Positions 1-38,549 of a stretch of DNA of 64,000 nucleotides are shown piece after piece. The stretch lies in the NCBI RefSeq assembly GCF_046105845.1, contig NZ_CP151004.1. One strand, 5' to 3'. The notes under the pieces were generated by a model. That model was not told the origin of the DNA, ran no database searches, and worked only from the letters and a program-made list of their open reading frames with translations. Each line of letters starts with the position of its first letter. Position 1 is the stretch's first letter. The translations under genes were made by a program, and so were the position numbers. This DNA is from Escherichia coli. Its GTDB lineage: Bacteria; Pseudomonadota; Gammaproteobacteria; Enterobacterales; Enterobacteriaceae.

Positions 1-2
1 AA

Positions 3-2114
3 GGCATTCGCGGGCAGGATGAATTTGTTCGTGTGAGTTGGGATGAGGCGCTGGAGCTTATTCACCAACAACATAAACGCATTCGTGAGGCTTATGGTCC
101 GGCATCGATTTTTGCTGGTTCCTACGGCTGGCGTTCAAACGGCGTGCTGCATAAGGCCTCGACATTATTACAACGCTATATGGCGCTTGCAGGCGGTTAT
201 ACCGGGCATCTGGGGGATTATTCGACCGGTGCAGCACAGGCGATCATGCCGTATGTCGTGGGGGGCAGCGAAGTTTATCAACAGCAAACCAGTTGGCCGT
301 TGGTGCTGGAACATAGCGATGTCGTGGTGCTGTGGAGTGCTAACCCACTCAATACGCTGAAAATTGCGTGGAATGCATCCGATGAGCAGGGGCTTTCTTA
401 CTTTTCTGCACTGCGTGACAGCAGGAAAAAGCTGATCTGCATTGATCCAATGCGATCGGAAACCGTCGATTTCTTTGGCGATAAAATGGAGTGGGTGGCA
501 CCGCACATGGGCACCGATGTTGCGCTGATGCTGGGGATCGCCTATACGCTGGTGGAAAATGGTTGGCACGACGAAGCGTTTCTGGCGCGTTGCACCACAG
601 GTTATGCCGTCTTCGCCTCTTATTTGCTGGGCGAGAGTGACGGAATAGCCAAAACCGCCGAATGGGCGGCAGGGATTTGTGGGGTTAACGCAGAGAAAAT
701 CCGCGAGCTGGCGGCTCTTTTCCACCAAAACACGACCATGCTGATGGCTGGCTGGGGAATGCAGCGTCAACAGTTTGGTGAGCAAAAACATTGGATGATC
801 GTCACGCTGGCGGCAATGTTGGGGCAAATCGGCACACCCGGCGGCGGTTTTGGTCTTTCTTACCATTTTGCCAATGGTGGTAACCCCACGCGGCGTTCTG
901 CGGTGCTCTCTTCCATGCAGGGCAGCTTGCCTGGCGGCACCGATGCGGTGGATAAAATCCCTGTTGCCCGCATTGTTGAAGCACTGGAAAACCCCGGTGG
1001 CGCATATCAACATAACGGTATGGACCGACATTTCCCGGATATTCGTTTTATCTGGTGGGCGGGCGGTGCCAACTTTACTCATCATCAGGATACCAATCGC
1101 CTGATCCGTGCCTGGCAAAAACCGGAGCTGGTGGTGATCTCTGAATGCTTCTGGACGGCTGCGGCGAAACACGCGGATATCGTTCTGCCTGCGACCACTT
1201 CGTTTGAGCGTAATGATCTCACCATGACCGGCGATTACAGCAATCAGCATCTGGTGCCGATGAAACAAGTGGTGCCGCCACGTTATGAAGCGCGTAATGA
1301 TTTTGATGTCTTTGCCGAGTTGAGTGAACGTTGGGAGAAGGGCGGCTATGCGCGGTTTACGGAAGGAAAAAGTGAGCTGCAATGGCTGGAAACGTTTTAT
1401 AACGTTGCCCGGCAGCGCGGGGCAAGCCAGCAGGTTGAATTGCCGCCATTTGCTGAGTTCTGGCAAGCCAACCAGTTAATTGAGATGCCGGAAAACCCGG
1501 ACAGCGAGCGGTTTATTCGCTTCGCCGATTTTCGCCGCGATCCGCAGGCGCATCCATTAAAAACTGCCAGTGGTAAGATTGAAATCTTCTCGCAGCGTAT
1601 TGCCGATTACGCTTATCCGGATTGCCCTGGGCATCCAATGTGGCTGGAGCCGGACGAATGGCAGGGCAATGCCGAACCGGAACAGTTGCAGGTACTTTCT
1701 GCTCATCCGGCACATCGTCTGCATAGCCAGCTGAATTACAGTTCTCTGCGCGAATTGTACGCGGTGGCAAATCGTGAGCCTGTCACCATTCATCCTGACG
1801 ATGCCCAGGCGCGCGGCATACAAGATGGCGATATTGTTCGGTTGTGGAACGCACGCGGGCAAATTCTTGCCGGAGCGGTCATTAGCGAGGGAATTAAACC
1901 TGGCGTGATTTGTATTCATGAAGGGGCATGGCCGGATCTGGATTTAACCGCTGACGGTATTTGTAAAAACGGCGCGGTGAACGTTCTGACCAAAGATCTC
2001 CCCAGCTCGCGGCTGGGGAATGGCTGTGCGGGTAATACGGCGCTGGCATGGCTGGAAAAATACAACGGTCCGGAACTGACACTTACAGCGTTTGAACCAC
2101 CGGCCAGCTCATAA
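3..2114 (+). CDS. bisC: Biotin sulfoxide reductase, 5'-partial (gene begins upstream of the window); molybdopterin oxidoreductase family
   Basis: Open frame runs from position 3 with no stop to TAA at 2114; translation recognised as BisC C-terminal ~700 aa; the ORF-track start at 33 is an internal GTG. Confidence 0.93.
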
Positions 2115-2523
2115 TCCAGGTGGGTAGTTGGGTTTCATCCTGCCATGCGCAGTCGACAATGTGAAAACCCTGCGCATGGTAAAAATATATCGCCGGTTGA
2201 TTTTTTTGATAAACCTCCAGCATCAGATGGGGATGGCGCTGCTGCACATACTGCATTAGCGCCTTACCAATACCGCGTCTGACGGCCTTCGGTGCGACAA
2301 ACATTGCAGCCAGAAATCGGCCTTCCATAATGCTGACAAAACCGAGAAGCTTACCGTCTTCTTCCCAGACCCAGTTTTGCGCGTTGGCAAGATAGGCATC
2401 CCGCACCAGCGGAATGCAATCACGCCAGTAATTCGCTTTTATAAAGGGATGCCCCCAGGTTGTACTTTCCAGCCACAGTTCGAGGATCGCGGGGAGTTCT
2501 GAACGTTGCGCTTCCCGAATCAT
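2083..2523 (-). CDS. yiaC: GNAT-family N-acetyltransferase, 146 aa
   Basis: 146-aa ORF recognised as YiaC; 3' end overlaps the bisC 3' end by 32 nt (convergent); start overlaps the tag stop by 4 nt. Confidence 0.9.
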
Positions 2524-3083
2524 GGTTTATTTCCCGGATAGCAACAGCAGCCAACCACATGATCATTCACCAGCCCACATGCCTGCATAAAGGAGTAACA
2601 GATTGTGGTACCAACAAACTTAAAACCACGCTTTTTCAGGGCTTTAGATAGAGCGTCGGAGGCGGGCGTAGATGTAGGGATTTCGCTCAACGTTGTGGCT
2701 TGTGTCACCTGTGGTTGATGATTGACAAACGACCAGACAAAGTCGGCAAACGGTTCGCCGTTCTGTTCCATTTGCAGGTACGCCCGCGCATTACCAATAA
2801 TTGCCTGAATTTTCCCGCGATGGCGGATAATCCCGGCGTACTGTACCAGTCTTTCGACATCCTCTTCCTGCATTGCAGCCACCTTCACCGGATCGAACTG
2901 ATGAAAGCTGGCGCGATAGTTTTCGCGTTTTTTGAGGACGGTGATCCACGATAATCCAGCCTGCTGCCCTTCAAGGCAGATCATTTCGAACAGTTTTTTA
3001 CTGTCAGTTTCAGGCACGCCCCATTCATTATCATGGTAGGCAATATAAAGCGGGTCCTGACTCACCCAGCCGCAACGTTCCAT
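2520..3083 (-). CDS. tag: 3-methyladenine DNA glycosylase I, 187 aa
   Basis: ORF-track frame 2520..3320 trimmed to internal ATG (CAT on + strand at 3081-3083) giving MERCGWVSQDPLYIAYHDNEWG, the recognised Tag N-terminus. Confidence 0.92.
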   Translation of the reverse strand: MERCGWVSQDPLYIAYHDNEWGVPETDSKKLFEMICLEGQQAGLSWITVLKKRENYRASFHQFDPVKVAAMQEEDVERLVQYAGIIRHRGKIQAIIGNARAYLQMEQNGEPFADFVWSFVNHQPQVTQATTLSEIPTSTPASDALSKALKKRGFKFVGTTICYSFMQACGLVNDHVVGCCCYPGNKP

Positions 3084-3234
3084 ACTTTCCCTCGCTATGT
3101 ACCCGATCGTAAAAATTTCAGCCGCTTTTCTTGACGCATCGGTGAAAAAGTCAATATTTAATACAGGGCTACTATGCCCGATATCCTTCATACAATGACA
3201 ATAATATTGCCGAATTCGGCTCTTCCCTGGAGTC

Positions 3235-3939
3235 GTGTTAATGATCATAAAAAAAAGCGGTGGTCGCTGGCAGCTAAGCCTGCTGGCGAGTGTGGTAATC
3301 AGTGCCTTTTTTCTCAACACAGCTTACGCCTGGCAACAAGAATATATCGTTGATACGCAACCCGGACATTCCACAGAGCGTTACACCTGGGATAGCGATC
3401 ATCAACCTGATTACAACGATATTTTGTCGCAACGTATTCAAAGTAGCCAAAGGGCGCTGGGACTGGAAGTCAATCTGGCGGAAGAAACTCCTGTGGATGT
3501 GACCAGCAGTATGAGTATGGGCTGGAATTTTCCTTTATATGAGCAGGTTACAACCGGCCCGGTCGCGGCATTACATTACGATGGCACAACCACCTCGATG
3601 TATAACGAGTTTGGCGACAGTACTACCACGCTGGCCGATCCGTTATGGCATGCCAGCGTGAGTACCTTAGGCTGGCGTGTTGACTCCCGGCTTGGCGATC
3701 TCCGACCCTGGGCGCAAATCAGCTATAACCAGCAATTTGGCGAGAATATCTGGAAGGCGCAATCAGGCCTGAGCCGGATGACGGCGACAAACCAGAACGG
3801 CAACTGGCTGGATGTCACCGTAGGCGCTGATATGTTGCTCAATCAAAATATTGCTGCCTATGCTGCGCTATCTCAGGCAGAAAATACCACTAACAATAGC
3901 GACTATCTGTATACGATAGGGGTTAGTGCCAAATTTTAA
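3235..3939 (+). CDS. yhjY: Predicted outer-membrane beta-barrel protein, ~232-234 aa
   Basis: ORF with signal-peptide-like N-terminus and aromatic C-terminal residue (…GVSAKF); position and sequence match recalled YhjY. Confidence 0.85.
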   Translation: MLMIIKKSGGRWQLSLLASVVISAFFLNTAYAWQQEYIVDTQPGHSTERYTWDSDHQPDYNDILSQRIQSSQRALGLEVNLAEETPVDVTSSMSMGWNFPLYEQVTTGPVAALHYDGTTTSMYNEFGDSTTTLADPLWHASVSTLGWRVDSRLGDLRPWAQISYNQQFGENIWKAQSGLSRMTATNQNGNWLDVTVGADMLLNQNIAAYAALSQAENTTNNSDYLYTIGVSAKF

Positions 3940-4084: not shown

Positions 4085-4167
4085 GCCGTTTTTCCCCAGG
4101 CATAAAGTGCACTTCGTTATGGTTGTCAGCAGAGATTTTTCCTTTTTATTACTGCAGGAATACTGCC

Positions 4168-5370
4168 ATGACACCTTCAAATTATCAGCGTACCCGCTGG
4201 TTGACACTCATCGGTACTATCATTACCCAGTTTGCCCTTGGGTCGGTTTATACCTGGAGCCTGTTTAACGGCGCGCTTTCTGCCAAGCTGGATGCGCCGG
4301 TAAGCCAGGTCGCTTTCTCTTTCGGCTTGTTAAGTCTGGGGCTGGCAATTTCATCTTCTGTTGCGGGGAAATTACAGGAACGTTTTGGCGTTAAACGCGT
4401 CACTATGGCTTCCGGCATTTTGCTGGGATTAGGCTTCTTCCTGACAGCGCATTCTGACAACCTGATGATGCTGTGGTTAAGCGCCGGTGTGCTGGTCGGT
4501 CTGGCGGATGGCGCGGGTTACCTACTGACGCTCTCTAACTGCGTGAAGTGGTTCCCGGAGCGTAAAGGTCTGATCTCCGCGTTCGCTATCGGTTCTTATG
4601 GTCTGGGTAGCCTGGGTTTCAAATTTATCGACACGCAGCTGCTGGAAACGGTGGGTCTGGAAAAAACTTTTGTGATTTGGGGAGCGATTGCGCTGGTGAT
4701 GATTGTTTTCGGCGCAACGTTAATGAAAGACGCACCAAAACAGGAAGTGAAAACCAGCAATGGTGTGGTGGAGAAAGATTACACGCTGGCAGAGTCGATG
4801 CGTAAACCGCAGTACTGGATGTTAGCGGTAATGTTCCTGACTGCCTGCATGAGCGGCCTGTACGTGATTGGGGTAGCGAAAGATATCGCCCAAAGTCTGG
4901 CACACCTTGATGTGGTTTCCGCAGCCAATGCAGTCACTGTTATTTCCATCGCCAACCTTTCAGGTCGTCTGGTTCTGGGGATACTGTCTGACAAAATCGC
5001 CCGAATCCGTGTTATCACCATTGGTCAGGTGATTTCGCTGGTGGGTATGGCGGCCCTGCTGTTTGCACCATTGAATGCAGTGACGTTCTTTGCAGCGATT
5101 GCCTGCGTGGCGTTTAACTTTGGCGGCACCATTACCGTTTTCCCGTCACTGGTCAGTGAGTTCTTCGGCCTCAATAACCTGGCGAAAAACTACGGTGTGA
5201 TTTATCTCGGTTTCGGTATCGGCAGCATTTGTGGGTCGATTATCGCCTCACTGTTTGGCGGCTTCTATGTGACCTTCTACGTGATTTTCGCCCTGCTGAT
5301 TCTGTCACTGGCGCTCTCTACGACGATTCGTCAGCCAGAGCAGAAAGTATTGCGTGAGGCACATATTTAG
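4168..5370 (+). CDS. yhjX: MFS transporter (oxalate/formate antiporter-like), pyruvate-inducible, ~400 aa
   Basis: ORF-track frame 4123..5370 trimmed to ATG at 4168 (MTPSNYQRTRWLTLIG…); multi-helix hydrophobic protein recognised as YhjX. Confidence 0.92.
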   Translation: MTPSNYQRTRWLTLIGTIITQFALGSVYTWSLFNGALSAKLDAPVSQVAFSFGLLSLGLAISSSVAGKLQERFGVKRVTMASGILLGLGFFLTAHSDNLMMLWLSAGVLVGLADGAGYLLTLSNCVKWFPERKGLISAFAIGSYGLGSLGFKFIDTQLLETVGLEKTFVIWGAIALVMIVFGATLMKDAPKQEVKTSNGVVEKDYTLAESMRKPQYWMLAVMFLTACMSGLYVIGVAKDIAQSLAHLDVVSAANAVTVISIANLSGRLVLGILSDKIARIRVITIGQVISLVGMAALLFAPLNAVTFFAAIACVAFNFGGTITVFPSLVSEFFGLNNLAKNYGVIYLGFGIGSICGSIIASLFGGFYVTFYVIFALLILSLALSTTIRQPEQKVLREAHI

Positions 5371-5689: not shown

Positions 5690-6214
5690 ATGAAAAAGGT
5701 TCTGTTTGCCTTATCTGCGCTTGCGCTGACCTCTACTTCCGTATTCGCAGCTGATGCGGGCGACGGTACTATCAAATTTACCGGTGAGATTGTTGATGCC
5801 GCTTGTGTTGTGTCTCCGGACTCTCAAAAACAAGAAGTTGTTCTGGGCCAGGTGAACAAGTCTGTTTTTACTGCTATTGGTGATAAATCCACAGCAACGC
5901 CGTTCAAAATCAAACTGGAAAACTGTGATATCTCCTCTTTAAAAAATGTGGAAATCAGCTTTAACGGCGTTGGCGCTACAGGGAACGAGAAACTGGTTTC
6001 TGTAAGCACTGAACCAGGTGCTGCAAGTGGCGTAGGTATCGGTATTTATGATAACACCAATACCCTGGTTGACCTGAATTCTGGTAAATCTGCTACCGTT
6101 CTGAAAGAAGGCCAGACCGTTCTCTACTTCACCGCTAACTATGTCGCTACCGCCGATTCAGTAAGCACCGGTTACGGTAACGCCGAAGTCGACTTCAACC
6201 TGACTTACAATTAA
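5690..6214 (+). CDS. lpfA: Major fimbrial subunit of a long polar fimbriae-type chaperone-usher operon, 174 aa
   Basis: Signal peptide MKKVLFALSALALTSTSVFA, conserved fimbrial Cys pair, C-terminal EVDFNLTYN donor-strand motif; GGAG RBS upstream; resembles recalled LpfA of Salmonella/E. coli O157. Confidence 0.88.
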   Translation: MKKVLFALSALALTSTSVFAADAGDGTIKFTGEIVDAACVVSPDSQKQEVVLGQVNKSVFTAIGDKSTATPFKIKLENCDISSLKNVEISFNGVGATGNEKLVSVSTEPGAASGVGIGIYDNTNTLVDLNSGKSATVLKEGQTVLYFTANYVATADSVSTGYGNAEVDFNLTYN

Positions 6215-6297
6215 TCGCCCCTAACAGGACGATCATCTCTCAATGGCAACAGAGACTCTGTTGCCATTATTCACACCAATGACTCAGGGACCGAATC

Positions 6298-6984
6298 ATG
6301 AAACGTATTAGCCTTGCCGTGCTGGCACTTTTAATGACCGCACAACAGTGTTTTGCTGGTGGCGTAGCCTTAAGTACGACGCGTGTTATTTATGATGGCG
6401 GCAAGAAAGAAGCGTCGCTGACCGTTGAAAATCATAATAAAAATGAAGAGTTTTTGATCCAGTCATGGATTGATGACGTGAATGGTAATAAAAAAACGCC
6501 GTTCATTATTACACCGCCATTATTCAAACTTGATCCCGATAAAAATAACGTCTTACGTATCGTCAATATTGAAGATACCTTACCTAAAGATCGTGAATCC
6601 GTTTACTGGATTAATGTAAAAGCGATTCCTGCGAAAAGTGCTGAAAATGAAAATAAAAACGTCTTACAGATAGCCGTTCGCACCCGTCTGAAGTTGTTCT
6701 ATCGTCCAAAAGGTTTGCCGGGAAGCAACCTCGAGGCAATGAAACAGTTACGTTTCCAGCGTCAAAATAACCAAATTGTGGTTAACAACGACTCCGCTTA
6801 TAACCTGACCTTTAATCAGTTTTCCGTTAATGGACAAAAGATTGAACGGGCGGGAATGGTTCTCGCAAAAGGGACGTTAAACATTAACCTTCCAGCCGGT
6901 ACAGGCAACGCGAACGAAGTGAAATACAGCATTATTAATGATTTCGGTGTTGCCGGCGAAATGCTGATGAAGCCGATCAACTGA
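6298..6984 (+). CDS. lpfB: Periplasmic fimbrial chaperone (PapD-like), 228 aa
   Basis: Signal peptide plus PapD-family-like sequence (…RVIYDGGKKEASLTVEN…, …VRTRLKLFYRP…); sits between major subunit and usher. Confidence 0.88.
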   Translation: MKRISLAVLALLMTAQQCFAGGVALSTTRVIYDGGKKEASLTVENHNKNEEFLIQSWIDDVNGNKKTPFIITPPLFKLDPDKNNVLRIVNIEDTLPKDRESVYWINVKAIPAKSAENENKNVLQIAVRTRLKLFYRPKGLPGSNLEAMKQLRFQRQNNQIVVNNDSAYNLTFNQFSVNGQKIERAGMVLAKGTLNINLPAGTGNANEVKYSIINDFGVAGEMLMKPIN

Positions 6985-7007
6985 CCCTTTTACAAGGCGC
7001 TTTTACT

Positions 7008-9539
7008 ATGCATTGGATGCATTTACCTCTCTATCACTACAGAGCGCATTTTTCCTTCTCACTGCTGGCATTAACGATTGCCAGTTCGTTACCTGCGTAT
7101 GGCGGAAAATTTAACCCTAAATTTCTCGAAAACGTTCAGGGTATCGATCAACACATCGACTTGTCGGTATACGACTCACCTGTAGGCCAGCAAATACCCG
7201 GTAAATATCGGGTTTCGGTGTTTGTAAACGAAGAAAAAATGGCTTCCCGGACGCTGGATTTTAGTACCGCCAGCGAAGCGAAACGCAAAGCCAGCGGTGA
7301 GTCGCTTATGCCTTGCCTTAGCCGGGTGCAACTGGAAGAAATGGGCGTGCGCGTTGACAGCTTTCCGGCGCTGAAGATGTCGCCACCGGAAGCCTGTGTG
7401 GCGTTTGATGAAATCATTCCCCAAGCCACCAGCCGCTTTGATTTTAATACTCAGACGCTACATCTTTCCTTCCCACAAGCGGCAATGATGATGACCGCTC
7501 GCGGCACGGTTGATCCTTCTCGCTGGGATGAAGGAATACCTGCGCTGTTGCTTGATTACAGCTTTAGTGGCAGCAATGGACGCAATGAAGGTACAGGTTC
7601 ATCTTCAGATTCGACCAGTGACAGTTATTACCTGAACCTGCGCAGCGGTTTGAACGTCGGTCCGTGGCGTTTACGTAATAACAGTATCTGGAACCGTATC
7701 GATGGTCAAAACCAATGGGATAACGTTGGCACATCGTTAAACCGGGCGATTATTCCACTCAAGTCACAGATAACGCTGGGTGATACCGCCACACCTGGCG
7801 AGATTTTTGACAGTGTACAAATGCGCGGGGCGCTACTGGCATCCGACGATGAGATGTTGCCGGACAGCCAGCGTGGCTTTGCTCCGGTGGTGCGCGGCAT
7901 CGCCAAAAGCAACGCTGAAGTGAGTATCGAACAGAACGGCTATGTTATTTATCGTACCTTTGTTCAGCCGGGCGCATTTGAGATTAACGATCTCTACGCA
8001 ACCTCCGGCAGCGGCGACCTGACGGTAATCATTAAAGAAGCCGACGGAAGTGAACAACGTTTTATCCAGCCGTTTTCAGCGGTGGCGATTTTCCAGCGTG
8101 AAGGTTATCTGAAATACAGCCTGGCTGCCGGTGAGTATCGTGCGGGTAATTACGACAGCGATAAACCACATTTCGGGCAATTTACCGCCATGTATGGATT
8201 GCCGTGGGGGATGACCGCCTACGGTGGCGCATTGTTGTCGGCAGACTACAACGCTTTAGCGCTGGGGCTGGGGAAAAACTTCGGCACCATTGGCGCGGTA
8301 TCGGTGGATGTCACTCAGGCGAAAAGTCAGTTACGTAACAATGAAAAAGAGGAAGGCCAGTCTTATCGATTCCTCTATTCGAAAAGTTTTGATGGGGGCA
8401 CTGACCTGCGTCTGTTGGGCTACAAGTACTCAACCAGTGGCTATTACACCTTCCAGGAAGCAACTGATGTTCGCAGTGACGCCGACAGTGATTACCGTCG
8501 TTATCACAAGCGTAGCCAGATACAGGGCAACATTACCCAGCAACTGGGAGACTACGGCTCTGTTTATTTCAATATGACGCAGCAGGATTACTGGAACGTT
8601 GACGGTAAGGAAAACTCCTTAAGCGCCGGTTATCACGGTCATATTGGTCGGGTGAATTACAGTGTTGCCTATACCTGGACGAGAAGCCCGGAATGGGAAG
8701 AAGACGATCGCTTGTGGTCATTCAGTGTTTCAATCCCTCTGGGGGGCGCGTGGAGCAGTTATCGCATGACCACCGACCAGAATGGCAAGTCGTCGCAACA
8801 GGCCTCTGTCAGCGGAACGTTACTGGAAGATCGTAACCTGAACTATAACGTCCAGCAGGGTTACACCAGTAATGGCGTAGGCTACAGTGGCAGCGTCAAC
8901 ATGGGGTATATGGGAGGCTCTGGCAACATTGACGTGGGCTATAACTATTCCAAAGATAACCAACAGGTTAACTATGGCGTGCGCGGCGGTGTCATTGTTC
9001 ACAGTGAAGGTATAACGCTTTCGCAGCCCTTAGGTGAAAGCCTGGCAATTGTTTCTGCGCCGGGTGCGCGTGGTGGACATGTAGTAAATAGCAGCGGCGT
9101 TGAAGTTGACTGGATGGGCAACGCAGTGGTGCCTTATCTCACGCCATATCGTGAAACCATTGTGGAATTGCGCAGCGACACGCTGGGGCAAAACGTTGAA
9201 CTACAGGAAGCATTCCAGAAAGTCGTGCCAACGCGTGGTGCAGTTGTACGTTCCCGCTTTGATACCCGCGTCGGTTACCGTGTGCTGATGAGCTTAAAAC
9301 AGGCCAATGGCAACGCAGTACCGTTTGGTGCCACCGCAGCATTAATTGATGAGAGCAAACCTGCCAGCAGCATTGTGGGTGAAGAGGGACAGCTTTATAT
9401 CAGCGGGATGCCAGAAGAGGGCGAATTGCAGGTAAGCTGGGGGAACGAGCAGGCACAACGTTGCCGTGTGCCATTCCGCTTGCCAGAGAACAAGGACAAT
9501 TCGGGTATCGTGATGGTTAATGCGGTATGCGAGAAATAA
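7008..9539 (+). CDS. lpfC: Outer-membrane fimbrial usher, 843 aa, intact
   Basis: 843-aa uninterrupted ORF of usher size and composition; start may be at 7008 or the ATG at 7017. Confidence 0.88.
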   Translation: MHWMHLPLYHYRAHFSFSLLALTIASSLPAYGGKFNPKFLENVQGIDQHIDLSVYDSPVGQQIPGKYRVSVFVNEEKMASRTLDFSTASEAKRKASGESLMPCLSRVQLEEMGVRVDSFPALKMSPPEACVAFDEIIPQATSRFDFNTQTLHLSFPQAAMMMTARGTVDPSRWDEGIPALLLDYSFSGSNGRNEGTGSSSDSTSDSYYLNLRSGLNVGPWRLRNNSIWNRIDGQNQWDNVGTSLNRAIIPLKSQITLGDTATPGEIFDSVQMRGALLASDDEMLPDSQRGFAPVVRGIAKSNAEVSIEQNGYVIYRTFVQPGAFEINDLYATSGSGDLTVIIKEADGSEQRFIQPFSAVAIFQREGYLKYSLAAGEYRAGNYDSDKPHFGQFTAMYGLPWGMTAYGGALLSADYNALALGLGKNFGTIGAVSVDVTQAKSQLRNNEKEEGQSYRFLYSKSFDGGTDLRLLGYKYSTSGYYTFQEATDVRSDADSDYRRYHKRSQIQGNITQQLGDYGSVYFNMTQQDYWNVDGKENSLSAGYHGHIGRVNYSVAYTWTRSPEWEEDDRLWSFSVSIPLGGAWSSYRMTTDQNGKSSQQASVSGTLLEDRNLNYNVQQGYTSNGVGYSGSVNMGYMGGSGNIDVGYNYSKDNQQVNYGVRGGVIVHSEGITLSQPLGESLAIVSAPGARGGHVVNSSGVEVDWMGNAVVPYLTPYRETIVELRSDTLGQNVELQEAFQKVVPTRGAVVRSRFDTRVGYRVLMSLKQANGNAVPFGATAALIDESKPASSIVGEEGQLYISGMPEEGELQVSWGNEQAQRCRVPFRLPENKDNSGIVMVNAVCEK

Positions 9540-9543
9540 GGAT

Positions 9544-10599
9544 ATGCAGATGAAGAAGATATTTGCGAGTGCAATATTTTTTAGCGTAATTTTATTTTCA
9601 GAGGCACTTTACGCTGCAGATTGGGGACCATGTAAGATTGCTTTTGATGGTCCTCCATTCGATTATAGTTTCGATATCAGTCAGAGTATCCAGGAACCAA
9701 CTGAAAATAAGACTGGTAAAATATTAACGTCAACATGGAATTTGGGAACAAAGTACTCAGCATATTGTGAATGCCCTTCGAAGAATCCTGATGCCGGCAA
9801 ACCTACACTCTTTAAAGCTGATGTGAATTTGCAATCCGGGCATGCAACTGATTATTTCAAGGTTAATGATTTTTTAGACGTTACCACTAAGGTTTATGTG
9901 GTGTCATATGGTAATTGGCAAACTCCTTTTACGGATTTAAGTAACCGAACAACAGGTAAGGAGTGTGATCCGGATCATCCGGGAACAGGTTGGGCTACAG
10001 GAAGTAGAGGGGAGTTAAAACTATATATAGTTAAACCTTTTGTAGGACAACTTGATATACCTAAAACAGAAGTTGTGGCAATTTTTGGTACAAAGCAAGC
10101 GGGGGTTTATTATTCGACACCTTTATCAACAGTAAATATATTCGGTAATATAACTGTAACCCAAGGATGTGAACTTGCTGCGGGGACAACGCTTGAGATC
10201 CCCTTTGGCGAATATCAGGCTCATGACTTCAAAGGGCGTGCCGGACAACCGCCCCAGGGGGTACGAAAAATACAAAAAGAGTTAAGTTTTGACTGCAACA
10301 ATATTTCCGATGGAGTCAAAATCTATCTTAGCATTGAAGGTACTCCGAATACGGACTACCCCAGTGCAATCAGTTTGGGTAATTCAGATGTCGGCGCAGT
10401 TATTGAAGATGGGAAAGGCAATATCTTGAAGCCTAACGATAGCAATAGCTTATTGGAAATGGCTCCTGGTTCTCTGTATGACACGGTTAAGCGTACCGCG
10501 AAAACGACAATTACCGCCTACCCAGTCAGTACGAACGGGAAACTCCCCGCTGCAGGTGATTATAGCGGCATTGCTACCATACATGTCGAACTGGAGTAA
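9544..10599 (+). CDS. lpfD: Fimbrial minor subunit / putative tip adhesin, ~350 aa
   Basis: ORF following the usher with signal peptide MKKIFASAIFFSVILFSEALYA; start ambiguous (ATG 9544 or 9550; ORF track gives 9520, overlapping lpfC); visibly AT-rich. Confidence 0.8.
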   Translation: MQMKKIFASAIFFSVILFSEALYAADWGPCKIAFDGPPFDYSFDISQSIQEPTENKTGKILTSTWNLGTKYSAYCECPSKNPDAGKPTLFKADVNLQSGHATDYFKVNDFLDVTTKVYVVSYGNWQTPFTDLSNRTTGKECDPDHPGTGWATGSRGELKLYIVKPFVGQLDIPKTEVVAIFGTKQAGVYYSTPLSTVNIFGNITVTQGCELAAGTTLEIPFGEYQAHDFKGRAGQPPQGVRKIQKELSFDCNNISDGVKIYLSIEGTPNTDYPSAISLGNSDVGAVIEDGKGNILKPNDSNSLLEMAPGSLYDTVKRTAKTTITAYPVSTNGKLPAAGDYSGIATIHVELE

Positions 10600-10604
10600 C
10601 AGTC

Positions 10605-11126
10605 ATGAAGCGAACAATACTTGCGTTATGCCTGCTGCCTCTTTCCTTATCGACAATGGCGCTTACGGATTTGGGAGCGAAGGGTGATTTAAAATTCACT
10701 TTGCAGATCCGCCAGGGTGCCTGTGAACTGGTAAAAGACAATATTGAGGTAGACCTGGGAAGAGCGGTACTTAAACAGCCTGTAAGAATCGGAACAGAAC
10801 TTAATCCCACTACTTTTTCCATCGGTCTGAAAAACTGTAGCGAAGTTGTCAGGGCTTACGTCACCATGAATGGTACGCCCAATACGGACGATCCAAATCT
10901 TTTTGCGCTGGATGCGGGTGGCGCTACGGGCGTTGGGCTGAAAATCAAAACCGCTGCGGGAGTACAACAGTTCCCGGAAAATACGACACCGACGCCGATT
11001 GAGTTCGCGATTAACAGTGATGGCTCACATCAATTGAACTATATCGCCAGCTACGTGCCAATTCGCGCTGATGCAACCATTGGTCGCGCGGATGCAACGG
11101 TCGATTTTACCGTTCAGTACGAATAA
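10605..11126 (+). CDS. lpfE: Fimbrial minor subunit, 173 aa
   Basis: Signal peptide, fimbrial Cys pair, C-terminal …TVDFTVQYE motif; last gene of operon. Confidence 0.85.
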   Translation: MKRTILALCLLPLSLSTMALTDLGAKGDLKFTLQIRQGACELVKDNIEVDLGRAVLKQPVRIGTELNPTTFSIGLKNCSEVVRAYVTMNGTPNTDDPNLFALDAGGATGVGLKIKTAAGVQQFPENTTPTPIEFAINSDGSHQLNYIASYVPIRADATIGRADATVDFTVQYE

Positions 11127-36000: not shown

Positions 36001-36479
36001 TGACCATTGGTCTTAACAATATGATCTGGCATTACGACAAAGACCTGAGTGGCTACTCACTCGGTCAGGGCGGTTACTACAGCCCGCAGGAATACCTGTC
36101 GTTTGCCATACCGGTGATGTGGCGGGAGCGCACGGAAAACTGGTCGTGGGAGCTGGGGGCGTCTGGCTCGTGGTCGCATTCACGCACCAAAACCATGCCG
36201 CGTTATCCGCTGATGAATCTGATCCCGACCGACTGGCAGGAAGAAGCTGCGCGGCAATCGAACGATGGCGGCAGCAGTCAGGGCTTTGGCTACACGGCGC
36301 GGGCATTACTTGAACGACGTGTTACTTCCAACTGGTTTGTCGGCACGGCAATTGATATCCAGCAGGCGAAAGATTACGCACCCAGCCATTTCCTGCTCTA
36401 CGTACGTTATTCCGCCGCCGGATGGCAGGGTGACATGGATTTACCGCCGCAGCCGCTGATACCTTACGCCGACTGGTAA
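33006..36479 (+). CDS. bcsC: Cellulose synthase outer-membrane subunit (TPR repeats plus beta-barrel), 1157 aa
   Basis: 1157-aa ORF with signal peptide, recognised as BcsC; start overlaps bcsZ 3' end by 19 nt. Confidence 0.95.
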
Positions 36480-36560
36480 GTTTTCAGATAGCGCCTCTCT
36501 TAATGCCGCTGCGATCGGGTATACTCGGGCGGCAATCTGGGATTTCCGGGGGGAGACAAT

Positions 36561-38549
36561 TTGCGCGTAAGTCGCTCGTTAACAATCAAGCAGATGGCAA
36601 TGGTGGCAGCCGTTGTCCTGGTGTTCGTTTTTATTTTTTGCACCGTTTTGCTGTTCCATCTGGTCCAGCAGAATCGCTATAACACGGCTACGCAACTGGA
36701 AAGCATTGCTCGCTCTGTCCGCGAACCCTTATCTTCAGCTATTTTGAAAGGCGATATTCCCGAAGCGGAAGCTATTCTTGCCAGCATTAAACCGGCAGGC
36801 GTGGTCAGCCGTGCCGATGTAGTGCTGCCTAACCAGTTCCAGGCGCTGCGTAAAAGTTTTATTCCAGAGCGTCCGGTGCCGGTAATGGTTACTCGCATGT
36901 TTGAGCTACCGGTTCAAATCTCGCTGGGTGTCTACTCGCTCGAACGTCCGGCAAATCCGCAGCCAATTGCCTATCTGGTGCTACAGGCGGATTCCTTCCG
37001 CATGTATAAGTTCGTGATGAGCACCCTCTCAACGTTAGTGACCATTTACTTACTTTTGTCGTTAATATTGACGGTGGCGATTAGCTGGTGCATTAACCGC
37101 CTGATTTTGCATCCGTTACGCAATATTGCTCGCGAACTTAACGCCATCCCTGCCCAGGAGCTTGTTGGTCACCAACTGGCATTACCACGTCTGCATCAGG
37201 ACGATGAAATCGGTATGCTGGTGCGCAGTTACAACCTCAACCAGCAATTGCTGCAGCGCCATTATGAAGAACAGAACGAAAACGCGATGCGCTTCCCGGT
37301 GTCGGATTTGCCGAACAAAGCCTTGCTGATGGAGATGCTGGAGCAGGTTGTCGCGCGTAAACAAACCACCGCGCTGATGATCATCACCTGTGAAACCCTG
37401 CGTGATACTGCGGGCGTGCTGAAAGAGGCGCAACGAGAAATTCTGCTGCTGACGCTGGTGGAAAAACTCAAATCGGTACTGTCGCCACGTATGATCCTCG
37501 CGCAGATTAGTGGTTATGACTTTGCTGTCATTGCCAACGGGGTACAGGAACCGTGGCACGCAATCACTTTGGGTCAGCAAGTGCTCACTATCATGAGCGA
37601 GCGCCTGCCGATTGAACGTATTCAACTCCGTCCGCACTGTAGCATTGGCGTGGAGATGTTCTACGGCGATCTCACCGCCGAACAGCTTTACAGTCGCGCT
37701 ATTTCTGCGGCATTTACCGCTCGCCATAAAGGCAAGAATCAGATTCAGTTCTTTGATCCGCAGCAGATGGAAGCCGCCCAACAGCGGTTGACGGAAGAGA
37801 GCGATATCCTTAATGCACTGGAAAATCATCAGTTTGCGATTTGGTTACAGCCACAGGTCGAGATGACCAGCGGTAAACTGGTCAGTGCAGAAGTGTTACT
37901 GCGTATCCAGCAACCGGATGGCAGTTGGGATCTGCCGGATGGCTTAATCGATCGCATTGAGTGCTGTGGGCTGATGGTTACCGTCGGTCACTGGGTGCTG
38001 GAAGAGTCCTGTCGATTGCTTGCTGCCTGGCAAGAGCGCGGCATTATGCTGCCCTTGTCGGTAAACCTCTCAGCGCTGCAACTGATGCATCCAAATATGG
38101 TGGCGGATATGCTGGAACTGTTAACCCGCTATCGCATTCAGCCGGGAACACTGATTCTGGAAGTGACAGAAAGCCGACGTATTGACGACCCTCATGCTGC
38201 GGTGGCAATCCTCCGTCCGTTGCGTAATGCCGGAGTTCGGGTGGCGCTGGATGATTTCGGCATGGGCTATGCGGGGCTGCGTCAGCTGCAGCATATGAAA
38301 TCGTTGCCAATCGACGTACTGAAAATCGACAAAATGTTTGTTGAAGGTTTGCCGGAAGATAGCAGCATGATTGCTGCAATTATCATGCTGGCGCAGAGCC
38401 TGAACTTACAAATGATTGCCGAAGGCGTGGAGACTGAAGCACAACGCGACTGGCTGGCAAAAGCGGGCGTTGGTATTGCCCAGGGCTTCCTTTTTGCTCG
38501 CCCACTCCCTATTGAAATCTTCGAAGAGAGTTACCTGGAAGAAAAGTAG
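36561..38549 (+). CDS. pdeK: c-di-GMP phosphodiesterase (HAMP-GGDEF-EAL), ~650-662 aa
   Basis: ORF with N-terminal TM helix and C-terminal EAL domain, recognised as PdeK (YhjK); longest frame starts at TTG 36561, alternative ATGs 33-39 nt downstream. Confidence 0.9.

Follow-up and report, generated by a model that had tools for sequence, protein, structure and literature searches.

A long-lived tail-to-tail overlap between bisC and yiaC in Escherichia coli and related Enterobacteriaceae, probably maintained passively

Pairs of convergent genes that overlap at their 3' ends have been surveyed in Escherichia coli, where 58 of them were counted (Lillo and Krakauer, 2007; PMC2174442). In that survey the phase denoted (123:132) was the commonest, accounting for 46% of the E. 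coli overlaps longer than 4 bp, and the frequencies of the phases were found compatible with an origin by mutation of stop codons. As was also pointed out there, the terminators of convergent overlapping genes must fall within the coding sequence of the partner. Here we describe one such pair, formed by bisC, which codes for biotin sulfoxide reductase, and yiaC, which codes for a GNAT lysine acetyltransferase, in a stretch of 64,000 nt of the E. coli contig NZ_CP151004.1 (assembly GCF_046105845.1), referred to as the window. Both genes share 32 nt (Table 1). With its opposite strands, a 3' overlap of under 50 nt, the commonest phase and a compatible origin by stop mutation, the pair does not differ in kind from the class described by Lillo and Krakauer, of which it is an ordinary member.

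Three other kinds of described system are close to this locus. The pair yiaC-bisC itself is found in Table 1 of the ExcludonFinder study of 2025, among 165 convergent excludons of strain MG1655, i.e., pairs whose transcripts overlapped in half or more of the 58 RNA-seq sets of this strain (PMC12288877). The hallmarks of a classical excludon are expression of one gene to the exclusion of the other and decay that depends on RNase III, whereas bisC and yiaC were assigned by the overlap of their transcripts. Most ExcludonFinder pairs overlap in their untranslated regions (with a mean intergenic distance of 95 nt), while here it is the coding sequences that overlap. The locus is also an ordinary example of the antisense and 3' readthrough transcription that is suppressed by Rho (PMC7815308), with a region sensitive to bicyclomycin (BCM) that is preceded by an untranslated tract with more C than G. 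Finally, as in the case of bidirectional intrinsic terminators, the genes converge without a spacer and there is a stem-loop near each stop codon; however, instead of one hairpin common to both genes, with an A tract and a U tract at its sides, there are two, each located inside the other gene. The overlap is already annotated and the overlap of the transcripts already catalogued. What we add is the depth of its conservation, the partition of the coding constraint between an ancestral segment of BisC and a disordered tail of YiaC, the mutually embedded stop codons with a synonymous leucine codon acting as a switch between 32 and 38 nt, and a candidate hairpin within bisC.

The geometry of the overlap had been proposed in a reading of the DNA made from its letters alone (the sequence-only reading), and the open reading frames (ORFs), the stop codons and the RefSeq coordinates all confirmed the 32 nt at 2083-2114. 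The “last 10 codons” that it assigned to the overlap in each gene is right if the stop is counted, as each gene contributes nine full sense codons, the stop and two nucleotides of a tenth sense codon. Positions 1, 2 and 3 of the bisC codons lie opposite positions 1, 3 and 2 of those of yiaC, i.e., the phase (123:132).

That both ORFs are real protein-coding genes is supported by several lines of evidence. By Pfam, yiaC belongs to the GNAT acetyltransferase families, with the match ending at residue 123 of 146, and bisC carries the Molybdopterin and Molydop_binding domains, the latter stopping 36 residues before the end of BisC. Nearly full-length alignments were obtained between BisC and structures of dimethyl sulfoxide (DMSO) and trimethylamine N-oxide (TMAO) reductases in the PDB (E down to 2e-279), and YiaC aligned with the nuclear magnetic resonance structure of its paralogue YjaB (2KCW, E 2e-12), which is of similar length. 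The AlphaFold (AF2) model of YiaC has a mean predicted local distance difference test (pLDDT) score of 94.7, and acetyl- and lactyl-transferase activities have been published for this protein (PMC6199490, PMC9636275).

Within E. coli the overlap is essentially invariant. The same 32 nt were annotated by RefSeq in all seven E. coli records examined (N3, a K-12 derivative, MG1655, UTI89, AR435 and two further strains); in MG1655 yiaC is found at 3713652-3714092 (+) and bisC at 3714061-3716394 (-). An 801-nt stretch of the window was 99.9% identical to strain N3. Of 5426 complete E. coli genomes, 5421 contain a stretch of 91 nt spanning the overlap, and the 47 nt at 2072-2118 were identical in 4848 of these 5421. 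One variant was sampled from the remaining 573 genomes (two records), and it was a C2082G change just outside the overlap that leaves both stops intact. The conservation of the two stops across E. coli, which the sequence-only reading had put forward as one of its checks, is thus borne out.

Other genera were reached by protein search and exact-sequence look-ups of contigs; a contig scan with the YiaC protein matched Escherichia only (five loci). Five further lineages of Escherichia (E. albertii, E. whittamii and three others) have an overlap of exactly 32 nt, with residues that vary in both tails. It also measured 32 nt in Salmonella, Citrobacter amalonaticus, a contig of the Raoultella/Klebsiella type, Enterobacter ludwigii and Pseudescherichia, where YiaC is ca. 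60% identical. In Kosakonia, Lelliottia and Phytobacter yiaC is two codons longer and the overlap is 38 nt. None of the loci examined has an earlier end for either gene, the outcome that would have counted against the pair, and in the last three genera yiaC ends instead 6 nt later. The overlap has thus been retained in orthologous loci, and therefore it is neither a strain-specific loss of a stop codon nor a misannotation. To judge from the genera sampled, it is at least as old as their common ancestor within the Enterobacteriaceae.

Two more distant lineages serve as outgroups. In Dickeya and in a second lineage, where YiaC has 41% identity, glyQS-tag-yiaC is present, bisC is absent downstream and yiaC is followed by 470-550 nt of non-coding DNA. 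The tails of these YiaC proteins (...HWQDQELLASVMS and ...SYQKTPFTD) are of similar length and unrelated to that of E. coli. As far as the compared loci indicate, the presence of the overlap goes together with the adjacency of bisC.

Two observations concern variation in the tails themselves. In E. coli, and in Escherichia sp. MOD1-EC7003 as its closest relative, YiaC has W-PVV-QTL and BisC has AFE (2095-2103; YiaC 141-143, BisC E772), while most other genera have W-QAD-QTP and AFD at these positions; from this contrast it follows that several linked substitutions in the overlap are specific to the E. coli lineage. In addition, one YiaC homologue (P0064, 143 aa) ends in ...PTWIMSWEAG, three residues before the others, which would mean an overlap of ca. 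23 nt if bisC were adjacent.

The overlap stands out at the level of DNA conservation, measured as the mean pairwise identity per column over 555 nt in 11 taxa. It was the top-ranked window of 32 nt, and it holds the most conserved run of bisC third positions within the last 600 nt of the gene. This rank, together with the position of the stops kept across genera, indicates more than chance. In the overlap the third position of yiaC (the second of bisC) had an identity of 0.92, compared with 0.48 outside, and the third position of bisC (the second of yiaC) had 0.74, compared with 0.56 outside; the second position of yiaC went down from 0.82 outside to the same 0.74. The claim that the overlap constrains both C-termini is upheld by these raised third-position identities, but the constraint is asymmetric and partitioned. 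Most substitutions within the overlap are silent in bisC and alter the residue in YiaC (e.g., ACA, ACG or ACC in bisC giving L, P or R in YiaC, and CCA or CCG giving V or A), and therefore the BisC frame dominates between 2083 and ca. 2105. Between ca. 2104 and 2115 it is the YiaC frame that dominates. The YiaC tail in the 2083 to ca. 2105 stretch follows the synonymous sites of BisC, with silent sites that are less free and amino-acid-determining sites that are freer.

The structures are in agreement with this partition. The tail of BisC aligned with the extreme C-terminus of the Rhodobacter DMSO reductase DorA (1EU1; ...EKYAGAPVTVTVFDTPK, residue 778 of 780) and also with that of the TMAO reductase 7L5I. 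The C-terminal segment EKY-GP-L-LTAF(D/E)PP is thus no extension, and it belongs to the ancestral fold of the DMSO reductase family. The AF2 model of YiaC has its last beta-strand at residues 133-140 (LPTWIMSW), in which W136, M138 and W140 were invariant across 20 YiaC sequences. Residues 141-146 (PVVQTL) are modelled as coil, with a block mean pLDDT of 58 and values below 50 for 144-146. The conserved LTAF(D/E)PP of BisC thus faces the six terminal residues of YiaC, predicted to be disordered and free to vary, and the conserved W-I-M-x-W of YiaC lies opposite the variable end of BisC, A-(S/N)-(S/P/A)-stop. The invariant Q-T of the YiaC tail is the reverse reading of the A-F codons of BisC.

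Each stop codon is embedded in codons of the partner (Table 1). A synonymous change of ATT to ATC in yiaC turns the bisC stop TAA into TGA, and both variants occur among the genera. In the other direction, the Leu codon CTT of BisC gives the yiaC stop TAA and CTC gives TGA (as in Enterobacter), while CTG removes this stop, so that yiaC reaches the preceding Leu-Thr of the LTLT repeat, 6 nt on. The three genera in the 38-nt state (Kosakonia, Lelliottia and Phytobacter) carry CTG. As the stops are embedded in conserved codons of the partner, the geometry is fixed at 32 nt, or at 38 nt with CTG. The stable geometry is explained in this way without any selected advantage of overlapping.

Table 1. 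Features of the bisC/yiaC locus, in positions of the window.
Feature	Position	Strand	Basis	Remarks
bisC (biotin sulfoxide reductase), 3' 2114 nt	1..2114	+	ORF, RefSeq of closest strain, Pfam, PDB homologues	start upstream of the window; ORF inside the window 33..2114
yiaC (GNAT lysine acetyltransferase, 146 aa)	2083..2523	-	ORF, RefSeq, Pfam, AF2 model	
tag (3-methyladenine DNA glycosylase I), partner upstream of yiaC	2520..3083	-	ORF, RefSeq	
Dual-coding overlap bisC/yiaC, 32 nt	2083..2114	both	ORFs, cross-genus comparison	
bisC stop codon	2112..2114	+		TAA, gene end ...GCC AGC TCA TAA; inside yiaC Ile137-Met138 (ATT ATG)
yiaC stop codon	2083..2085	-		TAA, complement of TTA; inside BisC Leu768-Thr769 (CTT ACA)
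Untranslated 3' extension of tag-yiaC RNA, antisense to bisC	1810..2082	-	published Rho region, coordinate mapping, C/G ratio	
Candidate hairpin A, 8-9 bp G+C-rich stem then AUCUUUGG	1998..2020	-	folding, synonymous recoding test	
Hairpin B, perfect 10-bp inverted repeat, 17-nt loop	2143..2179	+		29 nt 3' of the bisC stop, inside yiaC

As the two genes leave no intergenic DNA between them, each mRNA must end inside the other gene. The pair of sense and antisense transcripts that the sequence-only reading expected at the 3' ends is a logical consequence if transcription of each gene passes its stop, and published data also speak for it. Besides the ExcludonFinder entry, a region of Rho termination that peaks at MG1655 3714344 (+) has been reported under the class “antisense bisC” (Adams et al., 2021; PMC7815308, Supplementary file 2). 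The reads upstream and downstream of it were 90 and 23 in untreated cells and 60 and 112 with BCM, with a Rho score of 7.3 and a p value of 5.5e-14 (PMC7815308). Through the MG1655 coordinates this peak maps to ca. 1831 in the window, 252 nt past the yiaC stop. Between 2082 and 1810 the minus strand is rich in C and poor in G (C/G of 1.0-2.0, with the maximum of 2.0 at 1978-1888), so the termination zone is preceded, beyond the yiaC stop, by the kind of untranslated RNA stretch expected of a Rho terminator.

The RNA of the overlap is itself unstructured on both strands (z of +1.1 and +0.4), and searches with Rfam covariance models over 1500-3400 gave no matches at E <= 1. One stable structure was found on each side of it. 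Hairpin A lies 63 nt 3' of the yiaC stop, within the bisC codons for L-P-S-S-R-L-G-N, and with six G-C pairs and a folding free energy of -15.7 kcal/mol for 26 nt it is a G+C-rich stem-loop of the type found in intrinsic terminators. Among 20000 synonymous recodings with the local codon usage none was as stable (mean -5.4 kcal/mol). Hairpin B, on the plus strand, reached z -4.9 against shuffles and only z -2.2 against synonymous recoding (134 windows, others of which score better), with neither a U tract nor significant covariation. The case for B as a strongly selected structure was rejected on the recoding result and the existence of better windows, and it is kept as a weak candidate for a 3' stem-loop of bisC. 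A single bidirectional terminator shared by both genes is ruled out, with an unstructured overlap and hairpins that are separate. The best window of yiaC in the recoding test was another one, an imperfect inverted repeat of 20 nt at 2227-2271, 75% complementary, with z ca. -2.7 on both strands.

We consider that this is a genuine, old and passively maintained tail-to-tail overlap of two functional genes, with a probability of about 0.85. At the coding level, a constrained stretch of each gene lies over the unconstrained tail of its partner. The 3' end of yiaC was probably replaced by sequence antisense to bisC once the genes became neighbors, through an event of the stop-loss or deletion type, because the outgroups without an adjacent bisC have unrelated YiaC tails of similar length. 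At the RNA level, the tag-yiaC transcript would run on into sequence antisense to bisC, where Rho would end it ca. 250 nt past the stop, and hairpin A may terminate this RNA or protect its 3' end; the pair of sense and antisense 3' ends would then be, by default, a by-product. Several points weigh against this interpretation. The origin scenario rests on two outgroup lineages, in which gain and loss of bisC are not separable. The extent of the RNA overlap is known at a resolution of ca. 800 nt and on one strand; there is no curated Term-seq 3' end on either strand of MG1655 between 3,713,200 and 3,714,399 (PMC7815308), and the SMRT-Cappable-seq supplements mention neither bisC nor yiaC. In principle, an internal promoter, instead of readthrough from tag-yiaC, could also be the source of the Rho-sensitive antisense RNA over bisC. 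Besides, the passive by-product is the default reading, and the unusually optimized hairpin A hints at selection on at least one RNA feature.

Other explanations have been considered for the overlap as a whole. Nothing was found in favor of an annotation artefact, in which one protein would end earlier or one ORF would not be a gene and there would be no dual coding; the Pfam domains of YiaC and BisC fall short of both C-termini, which leaves the tails outside the domain models. Against an artefact, the tail of BisC shows homology with the C-termini resolved in the DorA and TMAO reductase chains, the W-I-M-x-W of YiaC is located in a confidently predicted last strand with three invariant residues, and both stops are at conserved positions across genera with no earlier in-frame stop in any of the loci, so that the artefact is effectively refuted. 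Less implausible, yet still unlikely, is that selection maintains the overlap for regulation, as a convergent excludon in which pairing of the RNAs or collision of the polymerases would make tag-yiaC and bisC antagonistic and would explain the conservation. The transcripts overlap in at least 50% of the 58 RNA-seq sets, Rho holds down the antisense RNA over the 3' end of bisC, the arrangement has been kept in at least nine genera and hairpin A outdoes all 20000 synonymous alternatives. Nevertheless, purifying selection on two proteins with interlocked stops is enough to explain the conservation fully, and ExcludonFinder scores any overlapping transcripts, an automatic result when coding sequences overlap. 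No anticorrelation of expression, RNase III data or phenotype was found for the pair, and the reads at the locus are low (90 in 800 nt). We would also give a small chance to a conserved module of termination signals embedded in coding sequence, with hairpin A (by selection on the synonymous sites of bisC) serving tag-yiaC as terminator or 3' protector and hairpin B serving bisC. The two hairpins would then determine the reach of each RNA into the opposite gene. If so, one gene would be modulated through Rho activity or through translation of its partner, and an operon of alkylation repair and acyl transfer would be connected with a sulfoxide reductase.

The role of hairpin A can be weighed separately, and here the odds are about even. 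One possibility is that it is a candidate terminator of tag-yiaC, or a barrier to exonucleases that protects its 3' end; the other, which we hold just as probable, is that it is not a 3' element of yiaC at all, being either incidental to the palindromic L-P-S-S-R-L-G-N stretch or of use to the bisC mRNA or its translation. The stem is built from the less frequent codons CTC, CCC and GGG and is the strongest outlier of 686 bisC windows (z -4.3), third-position conservation is raised at 1983-2021 (0.65-0.70 compared with 0.50), and both the location past the yiaC stop and the U-rich side on the yiaC strand suit a 3' element, all of which speaks against this second possibility. On the other hand, the tail AUCUUUGGUC barely passes the scan threshold of five T in eight and is a weak U tract, and the terminator scan gave three sites compared with 2.1 in shuffles, i.e., no excess. 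Covariation was not significant, with one compensatory pair and the observed pairing reached by 104 of 500 shuffles, and neither Pseudescherichia nor the Raoultella-type locus keeps the stem intact. There is also no curated Term-seq end at MG1655 3,714,1xx, nor anywhere in 3,713,800-3,714,399 (PMC7815308, Supplementary files 1 and 3), although low expression may hide one.

Some observations on the neighboring genes can be added. The stop of tag and the start of yiaC share the ATGA at 2520-2523, a classic 4-nt co-directional overlap. The tag-yiaC pairing was present in every genus examined, including Dickeya. In the other genera examined, tag and yiaC as called share 23 nt, or 20 nt in Kosakonia, and tag has 192-193 aa instead of 187. 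Antisense within bisC there is an ORF of 432 aa (168-1466, minus strand), the first codon position of which lies opposite the third of bisC. It is most likely a shadow ORF and not a gene, since antisense stops in its phase need the sense codons TTA, CTA or TCA. Farther along the window, colinearity with strain N3 is lost past about 5.5 kb. A chaperone-usher fimbrial operon of five ORFs (Fimbrial, PapD, Usher, Fimbrial and Fimbrial by Pfam) occupies 5690-11126 on the plus strand and follows a yhjX-like ORF (4123-5370). This block of ca. 5.7 kb is absent at the site in N3 and K-12, and it seems to resemble lpf (long polar fimbriae), an island located between yhjX and yhjW/eptB. Conversely, N3 has ca. 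2.2 kb of small hypothetical genes (36092-38261), one of them immunity-protein-like, that are missing from the window at ca. 41.8 kb, and the last gene of this block overlaps kdgK convergently by 29 nt.

For evolution, the pair bisC/yiaC is a clear and small example of a long-lived and low-cost convergent overlap, with constrained ends over disordered tails and stops that are fixed by the codons of the partner. For the manipulation of these genes, it means that any deletion, tag or recoding that touches the 3' end of one of them alters the other as well. The engineered E. coli BE104, present in RefSeq, in which the deletion of bisC with a Flp recombinase target (FRT) scar (1417-1508 in the BE104 locus) keeps the last 40 nt of bisC and leaves the stop and the tail of yiaC untouched, illustrates the relevance of the overlap to the design of knock-outs. 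As there is current work on YiaC as an acetyl- and lactyl-transferase of lysine, the phenotypes of yiaC or bisC knock-outs warrant a check on the neighbor and its 3' signals.

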